Assembly: GCA_023245035.1 (NCBI GenBank) | Contig: JAHFLD010000002.1 | Location: 1,501-65,500, forward strand | Direction: 5' to 3' | DNA length: 64,000 bases | DNA from: Candidatus Harrisonbacteria bacterium | GTDB taxonomy: Bacteria; Patescibacteriota; Minisyncoccia; UBA6257; 1-14-0-10-40-38 | Shown: in pieces, positions 6,830-21,279 of the stretch | Position numbering within the stretch: position 1 is the first letter of the stretch | How the letters are laid out: every line of letters begins with the position of its first letter | Position numbers and translations under genes: made by a program | Notes under the pieces: generated by a model | Databases searched by the model: none | What the model was told of the DNA's origin: nothing | What the model saw: only the letters and a program-made list of their open reading frames with translations

Positions 6830-7249
6830 ATGAAAAAAGATAAAATTATTTTTTCGCTGGTTCTTTTAGTGGTCGTGATTATGCTTGGTATTTTTTGGAA
6901 GACAGGTTCAATCTCTTTGACCGGGGATGAGGCGGTGAAGGCGGTTTTTTTGGCGAACGGGCAGGTTTATTTCGGCAAGGTCAGCGCCCAGAACAGCCAG
7001 TTTCTTCGCTTGACCGATATTTTTTATTTACAGGTTAGTCAGACGTTGCAGCCGCCGCAATCCGGCGTTCAGCCCCAGCAGAAAATTGATCTGGTGAAGT
7101 TGGGCAATGAGTTGCATGGGCCGCAGGATTTGATGGAGATTAACCGCGACCAGATATTATTTATTGAGAAGCTTCGCGATGATTCTAAAATTCTTAAGGC
7201 CATCCATGATTTTAAGAATCCTGGTACAAGTGGCCAGCCGGCTAATTAG
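6830..7249 (+). CDS. Hypothetical membrane-anchored protein (N-terminal TM helix)
   Basis: 139-aa ORF with N-terminal hydrophobic helix FSLVLLVVVIMLGIFW. No recognisable catalytic motif. Confidence 0.5.
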   Translation: MKKDKIIFSLVLLVVVIMLGIFWKTGSISLTGDEAVKAVFLANGQVYFGKVSAQNSQFLRLTDIFYLQVSQTLQPPQSGVQPQQKIDLVKLGNELHGPQDLMEINRDQILFIEKLRDDSKILKAIHDFKNPGTSGQPAN

Positions 7250-8036
7250 TGTTTTTCGCCGATCAGTTTTCGGAACAGGGGGGTTGTGGTTAATCCCTCT
7301 GTTTCTTGTTTTTTGGTTGGTGACACCGGTTTTGGCCACGGACTTTTCGGGAACGAATTTTATTATCAAGGATCCCGTGTTGAACGGTTCTTCCGGCTCG
7401 GCCACTTCCAGCAGTTTTGGTTTGCGGGGAACAATCGGGGAGCTTGGCGTGGGGCTTGGAACTTCAACTAACTTTGGTCTTCGCTCCGGTTCGCTTTATT
7501 TTCCGACACCGCCAAGCCCAAGCCCATCACCAACGCCGAGCCCATCGCCATCGCCAAGTACCGGCGGCAGTCCGTTTATTCCCCAGGTAGGAGTCGTGCC
7601 GCCGCTTTCGGCTAATATTTTGGTGAACTTGGCGAATATTATTCCGGTTTCCAATTGCAAGAATCCGGCTTTGAGGCGTTCGGATTATAATTGCGACGGC
7701 AAGGTAAATTTGAGAGATTTAAGCATTCTTTTTTCGGCTTCAGTTAAAAACGTGGCGCGCAATTTGAGCTTCTTGTTCTCTGACTGGACCGAGATTTTGC
7801 CGCGCTTTGCCACGCCGGAGACCTCCTCGCCAAAACAAATTGCCACGACACCGACGAATTTTGGCCGCGGGGTTTCGCCGACATCCCAGTTGGCGCAAGT
7901 GGGCGGAGCCGCTCAACGACCGGTTGATCTTCCTTCCTCTGGTGTGCAGTCTTTTTTTGGTAAGGTTAAGCAGTTGGTTAAGGATGTCTTATCTTTAGTA
8001 TTAACTGTTTTTCGCCTGTTGCCATTTCGGTTTTAG
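7164..8036 (+). CDS. Secreted Pro/Thr-linker protein with a single dockerin-like calcium-binding repeat; start uncertain
   Basis: Signal-peptide-like segment LWLIPLFLVFWLVTPVLA, then a PSPSPSPTPSPSPSPS linker and the motif DYNCDGKVNLRDLSILF, which matches the dockerin D-x-N-x-D-G-x-V-N-x-x-D consensus. The ATG at 7164 overlaps the previous ORF; TTG 7284 is an alternative start. Confidence 0.5.
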   Translation: MRSFAMILKFLRPSMILRILVQVASRLISVFRRSVFGTGGLWLIPLFLVFWLVTPVLATDFSGTNFIIKDPVLNGSSGSATSSSFGLRGTIGELGVGLGTSTNFGLRSGSLYFPTPPSPSPSPTPSPSPSPSTGGSPFIPQVGVVPPLSANILVNLANIIPVSNCKNPALRRSDYNCDGKVNLRDLSILFSASVKNVARNLSFLFSDWTEILPRFATPETSSPKQIATTPTNFGRGVSPTSQLAQVGGAAQRPVDLPSSGVQSFFGKVKQLVKDVLSLVLTVFRLLPFRF

Positions 8037-10198: not shown

Positions 10199-10285
10199 GG
10201 AGGGGTGGCAGAGCGGTCTAACGCGCCGCACTTGAAATGCGGTATACCCGAAACGGTATCGTGAGTTCGAATCTCACCCCCTCCG
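10199..10285 (+). tRNA. tRNA-Ser (anticodon TGA), CCA not encoded
   Basis: GGAGGGG acceptor pairs with CCCCTCC. Anticodon stem-loop CCGCA-CTTGAAA-TGCGG, long variable arm, T-arm GTGAG-TTCGAAT-CTCAC. Confidence 0.85.
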
Positions 10286-10323
10286 CGCTGGGCAGTAAAC
10301 TAATACATTTTGGGTTGATCTCG

Positions 10324-10827
10324 TTATGTCGTTGAGTTTTTTTCCGACTTTATATCCACGGCATCTTGCAAAATACCTTCCAATACATTGGCGGTGGCGG
10401 CAGTAACGAAAGAGATAAAAATTATCAAAAGACCAATAAAAACACCGCCTGCGATGTCATCGCCAGGCCGAACTATAAATAGATAAGCTTCTGTCGTCGC
10501 ATCAAAACCGATAATAGTCATCGCGCAGTATTTTATGGTGCGCAGGGCTTTTACGGAGTTTTGGGAAAATACTTTATTTTTTGCTACGTATCCCAAAAGC
10601 TTGAGCGCCTGATAAATCGCTATGAAAAAGGCGATAGAGGCAGCGTAGGCGTAGGCCAAAAATGGATCGTTGAAGTAAATTTCAAAAAGCGTGGCTTGGG
10701 CGTTTCTGCCTTCGATGTGCGGTTCCCAAAGCATAAAAGCCAGAGCGCCGATGCCGATGAGAACTATGACTATTCGAAGAAATATAATAGAACTTCGTTT
10801 TGTAAATCCCGATTTTAGGATGATCAT
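10324..10827 (-). CDS. Hypothetical polytopic membrane protein
   Basis: 167 aa with four hydrophobic helices. No catalytic motif. Confidence 0.55.
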   Translation of the reverse strand: MIILKSGFTKRSSIIFLRIVIVLIGIGALAFMLWEPHIEGRNAQATLFEIYFNDPFLAYAYAASIAFFIAIYQALKLLGYVAKNKVFSQNSVKALRTIKYCAMTIIGFDATTEAYLFIVRPGDDIAGGVFIGLLIIFISFVTAATANVLEGILQDAVDIKSEKNSTT

Positions 10828-10940
10828 AATTTAATCTTAATTTAGTGCTTGTCGTTTATCAATTTAGAGGTGGTTTGCTTAAGAGCTGGTTTGATGTTAC
10901 GATTCGGGCGTCTACGGTTTTTGATTTTTGGGGGAGTCGA

Positions 10941-11219
10941 ATGACCAAGGAACAAATCGGTGCCTTGTTGCGTCTTTATCTCGAAAAGTTGCAGGGGATG
11001 CATATCCCGCGGAGAAGTCTTTCGCTCACCGCGGTGCTGGGTCCAGATTCAGCAGGGGCGGCGCTGGCTCATTGCCACCAGATGCTTACCGAAATGCAAG
11101 TTTTTCTGGCCGAAGATCGGATGGATAAGCTTTTTCGCTGGTTGGGTTTTGTGCAGGGATGTTTTTGGTCAGCCGGACTTTTTACGATTGATGAGATGAG
11201 AGAACACAACCGCTCTTAG
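10941..11219 (+). CDS. Hypothetical small protein
   Basis: ATG at 10941 preceded by GGGGAG. Product MTKEQIGALLRLYLEKLQG... The longer track ORF from 10845 is probably 5' over-extension. Confidence 0.45.
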   Translation: MTKEQIGALLRLYLEKLQGMHIPRRSLSLTAVLGPDSAGAALAHCHQMLTEMQVFLAEDRMDKLFRWLGFVQGCFWSAGLFTIDEMREHNRS

Positions 11220-11233
11220 GAGCGGTTCTTTTT

Positions 11234-11295
11234 AATGACTACGAATTTACGAATTTTTACGAATATACGAATAGGATTGCATCAACGAACCCGCC
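11234..11295 (+). repeat. Direct repeat copy 1: tandem TACGAAT heptamer array (gactacgaatttacgaatttttacgaatatacgaatagg...catcaacgaa)
   Basis: Near-identical to 13249-13315. Four TACGAAT heptamers at 8-10 bp spacing. Lies 190 bp upstream of the 11482 CDS. Confidence 0.8.
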
Positions 11296-11481
11296 TCCGC
11301 TTGACCTGCCTTCCGGCAGGCAGGGCTACGGGCGGGCAAGTTTACGACTAAAACAATATACTCATTGTTCGTCCGGCCAAATGAGTACATTTTTGGCCAA
11401 AAAACTTGCTTTTCGTGAGGTTTTCCTCATATACTGCGCTTGGTTCGTTGACATATCAGCGGTTTTTAATTTGGAGATACC

Positions 11482-13212
11482 ATGTTCTTGGATAAGGCGT
11501 TTCTGGATCGGGCAATACCGATTGCTCGACAGTTCGTAAGAGCCCCAGTTCCGTATCAGTTTTCGGTTCGCGAGACTGAAGCCCTGAAATTGTTTTTTAC
11601 CAGTGCGACTTCGAGAGTTTTTTTCTTCCGGAATATGCCGCCGAATTTTTCGGCGGCGCTGCTCGCGATGTATTCGCGGCTCAAGAATCAGCGAGGGATT
11701 CGCGGTCATTTTGTTGATACGCTCTTGCCGCTTTTGCTAACGGGGCTTTTGGAGAATTTCTCCGAAGTTTCGCCAAGCGGAGCGATTCATGCCTATCAGG
11801 CTTATCTGACCGGATTGGGCATTAGGTCGCTTGATCAGTTCTGCGAAGCCAAGATAGAGCATCTGGCGGTATTTAAGGATTTCGTGGCGAATGCCACGGG
11901 CGATCCACGACTTGAAAAACAGTTGGCGGATTCACCGAAGATGAAGGCGTTGCTTGATGTGTTTTTGGACAAGTACGGGCACAATTCCATCGCGCGCGGA
12001 GCGGCTCTCACGTTCGCAGTGGAAGACATTTCCATTCTCGCGGCCAAGTCCATTGAGTGGAATCGTCCGGGTTCGGGGTTTATTGAGTTGAGCACGCGGT
12101 TTGTGGATATTTCGCGCGCCAGACAGTATCCAATCTGGGACGAGATTGCCTTAGTTTGCGAAGAGGCGGCGTGCGCGGCCAGAGAGGCGATTGTTCAGGC
12201 GAGCGCGGCTTATCGAACCTTGATTGGTGTGGCGTTTGACGGAATCTTGCCGAAGTTTTTTGAGCAACACTTCGCCCCGCTTTTGCCGGTCAAGGACTTG
12301 AAGTCCGCGGTTCAGGGCGAGGCGTGCGACGTGGCGGGCAATGTTTTGCCGTGCGCGACTTTGACTTCGGTTGGGGTGGCGATTTCCGGCGAGGCTTTTG
12401 ACTCTCTGCTTAAGCATCTGTTGCTTGACGCGACTCCGGAGAACTTTGCTCTGGTTGAATTGATTTTGGCCGAAGCCGCGAAGGTTGGCGGGGATCAGTT
12501 TGCCCGACACTACGAGCCGTCGCCGTGGGAAGTTGAGGGGTGGAGATACTTATCCTCGCAGAATATCATCCAAGGTTTCGGCACGACTTCGCTCTTGATT
12601 GCCGAGGATGTTTTGTGGAATTATTTTCGTTCCGATGGCACGTCCAACGGTTCCGCGGTGTTTGAAGATGTGCTGAGAAAGTTGCCGTTTGAAGAGAGGG
12701 GAGAACACGATCGCTTGCCCTATCATTTTGAAACGGTTTTTGGCACTAGCTTTGGAAAGATGTCTTTTCGTGGTTGGCGAGATTTGCAGAGGCATGTGCT
12801 CGCGACTCACGCGCGGACATTGGTTGATCCGAGTCTCGGTTTTTACCATTACGACAAGCCGGCACCCACCGAATTGGCCGACGTGTTTGACGAGATTCAC
12901 CTGATGAATCGAGCCACGTGGACGGCACTCTGCGGTCGCGGAGTCGCTCCGCTTATCGCGCAGTATGCCATGGCGATGGGTAATCTGGTTGGATTCCTGT
13001 GCGGTGCCAATTTGCGCGAATGGGAGTTCATCCTGTGGCAGAGAAGCGACTTTCAAGTGAATCACGAGGTGCGACAGGTGGCGCTGGGGATTGATCGCGC
13101 CCTGCAGATTCAGTTTCCGTGGTGGCGAAAAATTTCCCGTACCGATCTGACTCCGGCTTATGTGGCCGCTCGTAGTGAAGTTGGCGTGCCGTTGCCGACA
13201 AGTGTTGGTTGA
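11482..13212 (+). CDS. Hypothetical 576-aa protein, bracketed by TACGAAT direct repeats; weak tandem ThyX-like signature (speculative)
   Basis: GGAG RBS 5 nt upstream of the ATG. Two halves carry faint TFAVEDIS...ELSTRF and SFRGWRDLQRHVLATHART segments, reminiscent of the ThyX TFxxEGxS...RHR...SQRY signature. No confident assignment. Confidence 0.5.
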   Translation: MFLDKAFLDRAIPIARQFVRAPVPYQFSVRETEALKLFFTSATSRVFFFRNMPPNFSAALLAMYSRLKNQRGIRGHFVDTLLPLLLTGLLENFSEVSPSGAIHAYQAYLTGLGIRSLDQFCEAKIEHLAVFKDFVANATGDPRLEKQLADSPKMKALLDVFLDKYGHNSIARGAALTFAVEDISILAAKSIEWNRPGSGFIELSTRFVDISRARQYPIWDEIALVCEEAACAAREAIVQASAAYRTLIGVAFDGILPKFFEQHFAPLLPVKDLKSAVQGEACDVAGNVLPCATLTSVGVAISGEAFDSLLKHLLLDATPENFALVELILAEAAKVGGDQFARHYEPSPWEVEGWRYLSSQNIIQGFGTTSLLIAEDVLWNYFRSDGTSNGSAVFEDVLRKLPFEERGEHDRLPYHFETVFGTSFGKMSFRGWRDLQRHVLATHARTLVDPSLGFYHYDKPAPTELADVFDEIHLMNRATWTALCGRGVAPLIAQYAMAMGNLVGFLCGANLREWEFILWQRSDFQVNHEVRQVALGIDRALQIQFPWWRKISRTDLTPAYVAARSEVGVPLPTSVG

Positions 13213-13214
13213 TA

Positions 13215-13248
13215 GCAGAGCCCTGATTTACACTCGGGGCTTTTTTAT
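13215..13248 (+). terminator. Rho-independent terminator (agcccc...ggggct + T-run)
   Basis: GC stem agagccc/gggcttt followed by ttttt, immediately after the stop of the 11482 CDS. Confidence 0.55.
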
Positions 13249-13360
13249 ATGATTACGAATTTACGAATTTTTACGAATATACGAATGGGTACAGGGTGGA
13301 TTACATCAACGAATAACGAATCCTTTGCGAATGTACGAATGGGGAAAAAGATAAGGGTTA
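13249..13360 (+). repeat. Direct repeat copy 2: extended TACGAAT/ACGAAT array (8 CGAAT units)
   Basis: gattacgaatttacgaatttttacgaatatacgaatggg ... aacgaataacgaat ... gcgaatgtacgaatgggg. Matches copy 1 over ~55 bp. Confidence 0.8.
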
Positions 13361-13459
13361 CGAGGTACTGCTTGCTCCTAGCCCACGCCTTGAACTACGC
13401 CTAAATACGGAGGTTTTCTAGCAGACCCACATGTTTATTAAAAGACGCATTTTGGTTTT

Positions 13460-14194
13460 TTAAGCTCTGGCGGCGACGAGAGCGATAATGTTTTTTCCGC
13501 CGGCGCGTTTGATGGTGAGCGCGGCTTCGCGCAGAGTGGCGCCGGAGGTCGTGACGTCATCTACAAGAATTATATTTTTTCCGCGAACTTGTTCCGGTTT
13601 TTTTATGAGAAAGCTGTGCTGAATGTTTAGGACGCGTTCGGCGCGACTTACGCATTCGGCTTGGGGCTTGATGTAGCGAACTCGCCGGAGGGTGGAAGAG
13701 TTTATCGGCAAGCCGGTTTTCTGCGCAAAGCGGCGGGCCAAAAGTTCCGCCTGGTTGAAGCCCCGGATCTTGAGGCGGCGGCGATGCAGGGGGAGTGGGA
13801 TGACTAGCGGGTTTTTTGTTTGATTAGCGACTTCCTTCCAGTAGCGGGACATCAGGTGCGCCAAAGGGCGGGCCGCGACTGTCTGGCCCCGATATTTTAA
13901 TTGCCAGATTAGTCTTTGAACAGTCTCGTTTTCATATTTAGCGGCGGCGGCGAGCAGGTAGGGGCTTTCGGGGTGGCAGATTTTTTTACCGTCGGGGAGG
14001 CGGGCGCCGCAGATGGCGCATTCAAGCGCGTCGCCAAGTTTAATGTTTTCTTCGCAGGCCGCGCAAAGATTGTAGGTTTTGCGAAGATCCGCGACGACGG
14101 TTTCGCAGACTACGCAAAGTGGCGGGAAGATCAGATCAACGGCTGTTGCGGCGAGGCGCCGGAAGACGCTCATGGTATACTTTGAATATATCAT
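13460..14194 (-). CDS. comFC: Competence protein ComFC (phosphoribosyltransferase-type, N-terminal zinc finger)
   Basis: N-terminal CxxC...CxxC pairs and C-terminal PRTase motif ILVDDVTTSGATL. Divergent from pilM with only 8 bp between start codons. Confidence 0.8.
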   Translation of the reverse strand: MIYSKYTMSVFRRLAATAVDLIFPPLCVVCETVVADLRKTYNLCAACEENIKLGDALECAICGARLPDGKKICHPESPYLLAAAAKYENETVQRLIWQLKYRGQTVAARPLAHLMSRYWKEVANQTKNPLVIPLPLHRRRLKIRGFNQAELLARRFAQKTGLPINSSTLRRVRYIKPQAECVSRAERVLNIQHSFLIKKPEQVRGKNIILVDDVTTSGATLREAALTIKRAGGKNIIALVAARA

Positions 14195-19667: not shown

Positions 19668-19756
19668 ATATAAGTTACTAATGTGCGAATAATTAAGAAT
19701 ATACGAATGTACTTTTTTCGCATCATTCGCATTATCAATTTTCGCATCGGTCTTCT

Positions 19757-20965
19757 ATGAAATTCCGTTACAGCGCCAGAACTAAATCAGGTGAGCTCCA
19801 AGTGGGTTATGTGGAGGCGCTCCATCAAGACGCGGCCTCCAATATTTTGACCGGCCACGGCCTATACGTGCTGTCACTCGAGAGCATTCGCGAGCATCGC
19901 ACCTTTAGGGCGTTTTTCAACTTTTTGAATCGGGTTAAGGCCAAGGATTTGGTGATTTTTACCCGCCAGTTTGCCACCATGTTGGAGGCGAAGGTGCGGA
20001 TTGACGAGGGTTTGCGGACGCTCTTTTCTCAGACCAAAAATCCCATTCTTAAAGAGGCGATTTTTGAGGTTTCCGCGGATATTGACGCCGGTTTGTCGCT
20101 GTCGCAGGCAATGGAGCGGCAGAGCGCCGTGTTTTCCGAATTCTACGTTAATTTAATTCGCTCGGCGGAGGTGACAGGTAGAATTGAGGAGGCGATGCAA
20201 TTTTTGGCGGATCACTTGGAAAAAGAATTTGTCCTGACGACCAAGGTCAAAAACGCCATGATTTATCCGGTATTCGTCATCTTGCTGTTTTTTGTGGTCG
20301 GCGGAATTCTTATCGGTTTGGTTTTTCCTCAAATCACCCCAATTTTTACCGAATCGCAGGTAGAGCTGCCCTTTTTGACCAAGATATTACTTAATTCCGG
20401 TATATTTTTGAGCCATTGGTGGGTAGCGGTTGTAGCTACGGCTGGTTTTTTGGGGGCGGGGCTCTATGCCTACATTAAGACCGCCGAGGGCCGGGCGCTG
20501 GTTGATCAGTTTTCGCTCCAGGCGCCGGTTATGGGCAATTTGTTTAAAAAATTGTATTTGGCCAGATTTTCGGAGACGGCGAGCGTTTTGATCAAGGGTG
20601 GAATTCCAATCGCGCAGGCGATGGAGATTACCAGCCGGACAATCGGGAGCACTTTTTATGGCGAGATGCTTCACGATGTGGCCGAGGGGGTTCGGCGGGG
20701 CGAGCTGCTGTCGCAGGCTCTCGAAAAAAATCCACGTTATTTTTTGCCGCTCTTGACGCAGATGGTGGCGGTGGGGGAGAAGACCGGTAAGTTGGAGGAG
20801 ATGTTTATTCGGGTTTTTAGATTTTATTCCCGCGAGGTGGATACGGTGATTGATAACCTAGTGGAGTTTATTCAACCGGCTTTGATTGTGGTAATCGGCG
20901 GGGCGGTGGGGGCGCTGTTTGCGTCGGTGTTGTATCCCCTCTACTCCCTCATCCAGAAGTTCTAG
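19757..20965 (+). CDS. pilC: Type IV pilus inner-membrane platform protein PilC (GspF family)
   Basis: Two T2SS-F-like repeats, three TM segments, 402 aa. Follows pilT. Confidence 0.85.
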   Translation: MKFRYSARTKSGELQVGYVEALHQDAASNILTGHGLYVLSLESIREHRTFRAFFNFLNRVKAKDLVIFTRQFATMLEAKVRIDEGLRTLFSQTKNPILKEAIFEVSADIDAGLSLSQAMERQSAVFSEFYVNLIRSAEVTGRIEEAMQFLADHLEKEFVLTTKVKNAMIYPVFVILLFFVVGGILIGLVFPQITPIFTESQVELPFLTKILLNSGIFLSHWWVAVVATAGFLGAGLYAYIKTAEGRALVDQFSLQAPVMGNLFKKLYLARFSETASVLIKGGIPIAQAMEITSRTIGSTFYGEMLHDVAEGVRRGELLSQALEKNPRYFLPLLTQMVAVGEKTGKLEEMFIRVFRFYSREVDTVIDNLVEFIQPALIVVIGGAVGALFASVLYPLYSLIQKF

Positions 20966-21279
20966 GTTAAAACATCCGCATTCGGCGCATTTTTTTGTTG
21001 CGAGCTGTGGTGCTCAACGCAGTACTTGAATAAAGTACAGCTTATTCCGCTCCTCGCCTGCGCCTCAAACTGCGCACGAATGCGGATGTTTCAAGTCACG
21101 ATTGTCGTTCGCGCCTCGTATTTGTTCTTTTTAAATTAAGATACAGTATGCGAAAACTTTTTAGCCTGCCAAGCTTTCCATTCATTCTCCTCGCCCGCGC
21201 CTCAAACTGCATGCCCGAACGATTATATTTAGTCGGGCGGGCGCACGAACGCGGATGTTTCGAGACAACTCTTATTTTT

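Follow-up and report, generated by a model that had tools for sequence, protein, structure and literature searches.

What are the tandem TACGAAT heptamers that stand on both sides of one gene in a Candidatus Harrisonbacteria genome, and how did they come to be there? The locus lies in a stretch of 64,000 nucleotides (positions 1,501 to 65,500, forward strand, of contig JAHFLD010000002.1, assembly GCA_023245035.1; hereafter the window) from a bacterium of the Patescibacteria/Paceibacteria type with a G+C content of 49.7%. An earlier examination of the letters alone (hereafter the sequence-only reading) had seen in these repeats either the boundaries of an inserted cassette or the binding sites of a regulator shared with the pilus and competence genes nearby. 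We compared them with arrays and loci of other genomes, and we consider it likely that they derive from a compact mobile element of ~470 bp that carries a gene for a GxxExxY nuclease, as orphan outer arms of its terminal inverted repeats (TIRs). Loci of other genomes are given by our own numbers (L001 and so on), and the features of the window lie on the plus strand unless stated otherwise.

Heptamer arrays in the window

The direct repeats reported around the coding sequence at 11482-13212 are real. Positions 11224-11275 and 13238-13289 match over 52 nt with 88% identity, and a second stretch of 16 nt (11274-11289 and 13298-13313) matches with 94% identity, copy 2 having a 10-nt insertion before it. 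At its left end, ~14 nt of the 52-nt match are nothing but T-tails belonging to two intrinsic terminators (11208-11227 and 13217-13243), and the true repeat therefore starts at ~11237 and ~13251. The sister blocks (11240-11289 and 13254-13313) contain four TACGAAT units each, arranged as GAY-TACGAAT-T-TACGAAT-TTT-TACGAAT-A-TACGAAT-RGG (11237-11275 and 13251-13289), and 3' of both arrays stands GGATTRCATCAACGAA (11274-11289 and 13298-13313). In module A (11240-11272) the units start at 11240, 11248, 11258 and 11266, and in module B1 (13254-13286) at 13254, 13262, 13272 and 13280. The spacing of 8, 10, 8 bp and the spacer bases T, TTT and A are identical between the two, and both are followed by the linker AGGATTGCATCAACGAA (11273-11289 in copy A); the common spacers and the common linker mark A and B1 as sister copies.

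The linker ends in the first units of a second type of arm, 'ATCAACGAAT', which is truncated in A and complete in B. There it forms module B2 (13303-13343; AACGAAT, AACGAAT, TGCGAAT, TACGAAT; spacing 7, 11, 8), a second arm in tandem with B1, so that the four further CGAAT units said to follow copy 2 are indeed present (13308-13340). A fourth, decayed arm, module C, occupies the pilT-pilC spacer (19670-19713; TGCGAAT ... TACGAAT, then an inverted ATTCGCA at 19726-19732). The GAATATACGAATG core that had been noticed upstream of pilC belongs to this true fourth copy, though it lies at 19697-19709, 48 bp before the pilC ATG, and not at 19705-19720.

Such clustering is not expected by chance. Out of 14 exact TACGAAT heptamers in the 64 kb, 9 fall inside the two array places, and clusters of two or more units occurred on average 0.0 times per shuffle in 50 shuffles of the sequence. 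The motif is not over-represented outside the arrays in the window, and on this ground we rejected the idea of a DNA-uptake sequence.

The array module in other genomes

We searched a set of genomes, one for each species, for three TACGAAT units standing 1-3 nt apart. The pattern was found at 120 loci or more, against ~2 chance matches expected by our own estimate; among these listed loci, a tally by record titles gave ~63 from Patescibacteria (many class-level lineages) and ~29 from Bacteroidota, the rest including Omnitrophota, Chloroflexota and unclassified metagenome-assembled genomes (MAGs). A fourth heptamer directly upstream, which the pattern did not require, was present in 53 loci as C-TACGAAT-TACGAAT-NNN-TACGAAT-R-TACGAAT (up to 3 mismatches allowed), and a mirror-image array, ATTCGTA-Y-ATTCGTA-NNN-ATTCGTA-ATTCGTA-G, very often followed 20-70 nt further on. 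Within one genome the heptamers are perfect and the spacers vary, with no complementarity between the spacers of one arm and those of the other, which argues that selection acts on the units and not on a hairpin. Some TIR pairs without a gene form paralogous families in single contigs (three copies in L017, two copies in L057), and an architecture of tandem arms with a similar G-rich/GCATCA linker was also found in a Chryseobacterium MAG (L055). The four-heptamer module was absent from 2.9 million viral contigs and no match was found in phage records; a phage origin was therefore rejected.

Nearly all arrays are intergenic, and many take up the entire gap from one gene to the next. The 92 genes that start beside arrays matched 166 Pfam families, none of them matched by more than 3 genes, and the 105 genes that end beside arrays matched 140 Pfam families; the neighbours include PGK, GatB, UvrA, ribosomal protein S20, DnaK, MreB, DHFR and pilus ATPases. 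No coherent function emerged from these scans, which speaks against a regulon of one function. These results bear on the proposal that a transcription factor of the response-regulator, ComK-like or ribbon-helix-helix type uses the arrays as operator or activator sites to control thyX together with the pilus/competence cluster. Heptamers kept by selection between drifting spacers would suit such a role, but the neighbours across loci are unrelated housekeeping genes, the arrays have no orientation bias relative to the flanking genes, and they are also found in spacers of convergent genes. The rpsG-fusA, dnaK-region and pilus-cluster sites do recur among the arrays, which insertion hot spots explain equally well.

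A nuclease gene between the arrays

All-against-all clustering of the 884 open reading frames (ORFs) of the array loci left one small family that hugs the arrays. It corresponds to Pfam PF13366 (PDDEXK_3), equivalent to TIGR04256, 'GxxExxY protein', and 5 of its 6 members abut an array. The recurring neighbours of ~155-163 aa turned out to be DHFR, pilin, PTPS and others; only PDDEXK_3 held up. No classical transposase was found among the 884 ORFs. The GxxExxY gene is bracketed by TACGAAT and ATTCGTA arrays in L120, L107 (Bacteroidota), L073 and L056, and in L073 the whole element (1228-1700) sits between the genes of ribosomal protein S7 (rpsG) and EF-G (fusA).

We then collected 80 metagenome loci solely by homology to the GxxExxY protein, using a query of three sequences (70 of them with unique ORF sequences); this sampling is biased toward one clade of the protein. 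Over the 80 nt that precede the gene, forward units reached 25.6 per kb, and over the 90 nt that follow it, reverse units reached 24.4 per kb, against a background heptamer density of 0.44-0.54 per kb, that is, an enrichment of ~50-fold, and units in the wrong orientation were rare. The strict pattern with exact units was found in 36 of 69 unique loci. Most of the remaining loci had variant heptamers (TACTAAT, TACCAAT, TACAAAT or TACGAAA) that co-vary between the left and the right arm. The commonest spacing within the arms was 7,10,8, followed by 7,11,8 and 8,10,8.

From these loci the intact element can be described as follows: (C)CC-TACGAAT-TACGAAT-N3/4-TACGAAT-N-TACGAAT, the ATG of a GxxExxY ORF of ~125-135 aa, and a mirror ATTCGTA array ending in GG(G), with a total length of ~470 bp. 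The arm follows the stop codon of the preceding gene at a distance of 1-4 nt, and its last heptamer usually leads directly into the start codon (TACGAATATG; gap 0 in 26 cases). In the rpsG-fusA elements the ATG stands directly against the last heptamer and there is no visible Shine-Dalgarno sequence, which makes the translation of the gene puzzling.

The GxxExxY protein is a minimal PD-(D/E)XK nuclease, and its D...ExK residues are invariant in two alignments. A search against solved structures gave no sequence match; the AlphaFold model is confident (mean predicted local distance difference test score, pLDDT, 92.6) and has a Cas4-like fold. A 2012 survey of the superfamily lists PDDEXK_3 as of unknown function, with 'multiple transfers, mixed clades'. 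Elsewhere in the literature searched, GxxExxY/PDDEXK_3 was mentioned solely as 'unknown' or in passing, the array strings appeared in no paper, and no paper joined the terms Patescibacteria, intergenic and heptamer. The ~470-bp element is thus apparently undescribed, as far as the searched literature goes; literature beyond it may hold a description. The Bacteroidota contig L107 also carries a more divergent PDDEXK_3 gene (7185-7640) that has no flanking arrays, so only a subfamily of PF13366 is tied to TACGAAT arms.

Mobility of the element

A case of movement comes from L131 and L135, whose hosts are close relatives (pilT 92.6% and pilC 89.4% identical at the nucleotide level). Their copies of the element are 95% identical from (AA)CCCTACGAAT to ATTCGTAGG; the similarity ends exactly there and the flanks are unrelated. 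In L135 the element lies between pilT and pilC; L131 has this junction empty, with overlapping stop and start codons (TAATG), and carries its own copy immediately behind pilC, a place where L135 has only a terminator. Other pairs of loci have ORFs 83-85% identical in unrelated flanks.

In several further pairs the flanks are homologous housekeeping genes (L152 and L154, L168 and L176, L128 and L133 were compared), and the DNA of the GxxExxY ORF is more conserved than these flanks, with 99.7% against 88-94% and 90% against 80-82% identity. Judged from these alignments, this suggests recent exchange of the element between diverged genomes at the same site. Arrays and gene occur together and move together, their insertion is polymorphic, and the catalytic motif of the nuclease is conserved. 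The joint movement with a nuclease gene is a further point against operator sites.

Window arrays as probable ends of the element

We built end-profile hidden Markov models (HMMs) from the loci collected by protein homology and searched the 64-kb window with nhmmer. Four places, which share one orientation, matched the profiles at E < 0.01, and nothing else scored below E = 1. Module A (11236-11277) matched the left-end model with E = 8e-7 and the right-end model on the minus strand with E = 6e-9; the corresponding values were 3e-6 and 6e-8 for B1 (13252-13287), 4e-5 and 9e-5 for B2 (13303-13343), and 7.5e-3 and 9.5e-4 for C (19670-19713). The arm spacings are also among those of real elements, A and B1 having the third commonest (8,10,8) and B2 the second commonest (7,11,8). 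The window arrays belong to the end family of the GxxExxY element.

No match in the window reached into the ORF part of the profile, and neither tblastn nor a six-frame hmmsearch found a GxxExxY gene or pseudogene in the 64 kb; the window therefore contains orphan arms only. A resemblance to 'MGKKIR' after module B2 was considered as a remnant of the nuclease and was not significant. The element inserts where the gap from one gene to the next is short, mostly 1-4 nt past the stop codon of the preceding gene, and it leaves behind TIR pairs without the gene (similar to miniature inverted-repeat transposable elements, MITEs, that is, miniature non-autonomous copies) as well as single arms. The window would then hold four surviving arms, A, B1, B2 and C, with the 'inside' of all four pointing right, and A and B1 would have arrived, by insertion or by copying, directly behind the terminators on either side of the resident ThyX-like gene. 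In this scheme the GxxExxY protein would bind the heptamers as an oligomer and cut at the element ends, in a transposase-like or homing-like role, and the orphan arms of the window would be inert relics rather than co-opted sites.

Several observations weigh against this interpretation. The lack of the nuclease gene in the window is one of them, and no inverted partner (ATTCGTA cluster) was found within ~0.5 kb of A or B, C being followed by a single ATTCGCA; consequently no arm of the window demonstrably comes from a complete element at that spot. In the set collected by the array pattern just 5 of ~140 array sites adjoin a GxxExxY gene, and most arrays are without it. The protein lacks a separate domain for DNA binding. 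The L131/L135 comparison resolved no clear target-site duplication and gave 2-3 extra bases at one filled site. The enrichment in pilus clusters, described below, could reflect function instead of an insertion hot spot. Finally, two sister arms on both sides of one gene are an unexplained coincidence, which could stem from local hopping, from ectopic conversion or from a preferred insertion directly behind terminators.

The near identity of A and B1, including spacers and linker, implies recent copying. It could also mean that A and B, though non-autonomous, are still active, or that they arose by one-ended or aberrant transposition, with a GxxExxY gene in another part of the genome mobilising them in trans; they would then not be dead relics. 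The paralogous families without the gene in L017 and L057 and the similar tandem arms of the Chryseobacterium MAG agree with this. We consider it unlikely, given that a canonical two-ended cut is impossible without an inverted partner and that the window has no source gene.

The ThyX-like gene and its locus in relatives

The 576-aa protein encoded at 11482-13212, first taken as unknown, belongs to the Thy1/ThyX family: it matches Pfam Thy1 in two stretches (E = 2.3e-16). It had 215 homologues at E <= 0.001, of which the best 120 are 529-616 aa long; the named ones among these 120 come from Parcubacteria-group genomes, and several are annotated as FAD-dependent thymidylate synthase. The canonical ThyX motif is RHRxxS, and at its expected place the protein of the window reads 'QRHVLATHAR'.

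The order of an upstream small gene, the thyX-like gene, comFC on the opposite strand, and pilM with the rest of the pilus cluster is the same in L002 and L003 (protein 75% identical) and in L004 (51%). With the same neighbours at such distances, the gene is resident at the locus. L002 and L003, the closest relatives, come from Hainich groundwater, and their flanking genes are ~80% identical in nucleotides to those of the window; both lack A and B. The spacers around the thyX-like gene measure 96 and 98 nt in L002 against 263 and 248 nt in the window. Both intrinsic terminators and the TTGCTT/TATACT promoter hexamers (17-nt spacer) are kept in L002, and arrays are absent. It follows that the repeats, not the gene, were inserted (or were lost in the relative), and that the 2-kb block suspected of coming and going as a whole does not do so: the gene is syntenic and the arrays are what the closest relative lacks.

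Insertion A as a whole comprises ~166 nt (11240-11405). It begins after the terminator of the upstream 124-aa gene (11208-11233; stem 11208-11227 plus T-run) and ends before a promoter-like TTGCTT-18-TATACT (11406-11435), which is the predicted promoter of the ThyX-like gene. Insertion B comprises ~180 nt (13250-13430) in place of ~20 nt of the relative's thyX-comFC spacer. It follows the terminator of the ThyX-like gene (13217-13249) and lies between two convergent genes.

These data speak to the proposal that the ThyX-like gene was brought in by a mobile cassette or composite element with the direct repeats as its limits. A and B1 are nearly identical, stand in direct orientation on both sides of one gene with its promoter, and have a tRNA-Ser, a classic integration landmark, 1 kb upstream; yet the gene is found at the same position in relatives without the repeats, long ThyX-like proteins are near-universal in the clade, no ThyX homologue is encoded in the ~120 other array loci listed, and no attC-like features were seen. 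We regard such a cassette as very improbable. The notion of an insertion was correct in so far as mobile DNA is involved, namely as the arrays, which are arms of a mobile element.

The thyX-comFC spacer of L004 (7545-7600) contains ATTCGCG, ATTCGTG and ATTCGCG units in the reverse orientation, so this spacer has hosted heptamer arms more than once. In L004 a thymidine kinase gene adjoins the thyX-like gene.

Pilus clusters and other recurrent sites

The positional link to pilus genes made in the sequence-only reading is borne out in related genomes, where the element or its arms were found inside type IV pilus clusters at no fewer than 13 distinct loci. The element lies between pilT and pilC in L125, L135-138, L140, L159, L173 and L198/199, just after pilC in L131/132, before pilB in L195 and beside pilM in L164. 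Where only arrays are present, without the gene, they stand before pilB (L005 and L047), before pilT (L008) or after it (L116), after pilC (L088) and beside pilM (L058). The rpsG-fusA junction is a second recurrent site (L073, L152/154, L187/188, L191), in at least 4 distinct genomes.

Taken together, the pilT-pilC junctions form a decay series, from the full element (L135, L198 and others) through a TIR pair without the gene (L005, 7660-7780) to remnants in L002 (11024-11059, ATTCGTAtATTCGCA) and in the window (19670-19732, module C). The window, L002 and L005 differ from one another in sequence and orientation at this junction. The link to pilus clusters is most economically read as an insertion hot spot or an ancient insertion, which needs no regulation.

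The same link, together with the copy upstream of pilC, is what can be said for operator sites in this region, and orphan arms could have been co-opted as such. Both arrays that flank thyX are missing in the closest relative, which has the same genes and the same promoter, and the site is not conserved at orthologous promoters; array B stands between convergent gene ends, and the 8, 10, 8 spacing is not helically phased. Thus, the shared regulator motif is unsupported as it was stated, and we judge operator sites improbable.

A competence promoter was also considered. The streptococcal ComX (SigX) cin-box, a term present in the retrieved papers, contains the identical 7-mer (TACGAATA), and comFC and pilus genes are found in the window, so that TACGAAT could be the -10-like box of a ComX/SigX-type competence sigma factor and the arrays its promoters. 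The cin-box is a single -10-like element, whereas the arrays consist of 4-8 units in tandem, are found in either orientation and also as inverted pairs, and stand at non-promoter positions, such as between convergent genes and beside ribosomal, heat-shock and glycolytic genes, with no consistently placed start codons or promoters. The likeness is a 7-mer coincidence, and we give this explanation hardly any credence.

Comparison with known systems

With the orphan arms referred to a GxxExxY element, four kinds of known system can be compared with it. The REP/RAYT (REPIN) systems of Proteobacteria likewise combine a small nuclease-type gene flanked by inverted short repeats with many copies without the gene, single or in inverted pairs, in the spacers of housekeeping operons. 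In contrast to them, the protein here is a PD-(D/E)XK protein of ~130 aa and not a HUH/Y1 transposase, the repeat consists of four heptamers, each under selection as a unit, and not of an imperfect hairpin, the gene itself is multi-copy and mobile, and the heptamer is common to several phyla.

The ends of Tn7, Mu and IS21 carry several transposase-binding repeats. MITEs and transposons with such multi-repeat ends resemble the present element in having TIRs of repeated sub-sites, short non-autonomous derivatives and filled/empty polymorphism; TIR pairs without the gene were found in related genomes and none in the window, and 2-3 extra bases were seen at one filled site. Unlike these transposons, the element has no DDE, serine or tyrosine transposase, measures only ~470 bp in total, leaves no clear target duplication, and inserts precisely between a stop codon and the next start codon.

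Homing endonuclease genes, which may be free-standing or intron-borne, include a PD-(D/E)XK enzyme, I-Ssp6803I. The likeness consists in a very small selfish nuclease gene that recurs at conserved junctions (rpsG-fusA, pilT-pilC), and an element more conserved than its flanks is expected for homing between diverged genomes. Homing genes normally have no TIR arrays and no TIR derivatives without the gene, and need none, whereas both are present here; the near-identical copies at different sites in the sister genomes L131 and L135 point to transposition.

The heptad operators of omega of pSM19035, a ribbon-helix-helix protein, and the metboxes of MetJ are promoter operators of few operons on one replicon. 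They share with the arrays the tandem units of 7-8 bp, direct and inverted, which in omega and MetJ are read cooperatively by small proteins; the arrays here are dispersed, mobile and tied to a nuclease gene.

A wider proposal goes beyond the origin of the window arrays, and we put it forward tentatively, at rather less than even chances. It holds that GxxExxY is the mobility nuclease of undescribed ultra-compact (~470 bp) elements of transposon or homing type that end in four-heptamer TACGAAT arrays, have spread over Patescibacteria, Bacteroidota and other phyla with a preference for type IV pilus clusters and rpsG-fusA, and have seeded many arrays without the gene, some of which, possibly those at thyX and pilC, may now be protein-binding sites in a DNA-uptake locus. 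If true, it would give a role and a testable DNA substrate to the large GxxExxY/PDDEXK_3 family, present in hundreds of genomes of the candidate phyla radiation (Patescibacteria) and Bacteroidota. A PD-(D/E)XK protein of 130 aa with heptamer-array ends would be among the smallest self-contained mobile units, and possibly a genome-engineering tool for organisms that currently have none. The element would explain conspicuous intergenic repeats in the streamlined genomes of Patescibacteria, which are usually thought poor in mobile DNA. For annotation, such arrays should not be read as regulator sites or cassette boundaries.

Other features of the window

The GC-rich hairpin inside insertion A (11290-11338; RNA minimum free energy -31 kcal/mol; core CCTGCCTTCCGGCAGGCAGG) lies outside the heptamer array. 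Several copies of its core were found in other Patescibacteria loci (L032, L036, L041), and it is probably another small intergenic repeat family. Rfam searches for structured RNA, with gathering thresholds and with E-values, returned nothing relevant. An independent Logan assembly contig (L001) has the same sequence as the window from 11363 to 13283. It ends inside array B1, as is expected at a repeat, and begins inside insertion A, at 11363, for no obvious reason.

The tRNA-Ser (10199-10286) and comFC (13460-14194, minus strand) were confirmed. The segment from the tRNA-Ser to the small gene differs between the window (10287-10845), which has a DUF2975 gene, and L002 (315-2470), which has three other ORFs, one of them AAA_33 kinase-like; this segment may be an integration hot spot.

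Finally, the region after pilC (20963-21270) belongs to a different repeat family and gave no match to the heptamer-arm profiles. It contains a long inverted repeat (aaacatccgcattcg / cgaatgcggatgttt), with a second partial copy at ~21243-21262. The ACGAATG that had been reported twice in this region is present at 21077-21083, and the second site reads ACGAACG. Another stretch of the region, GCATTTTTTTGTTGCGAGCTGTGGTGCTCAA (20985-21015), recurs downstream of thyX in L002 (4706-4740).

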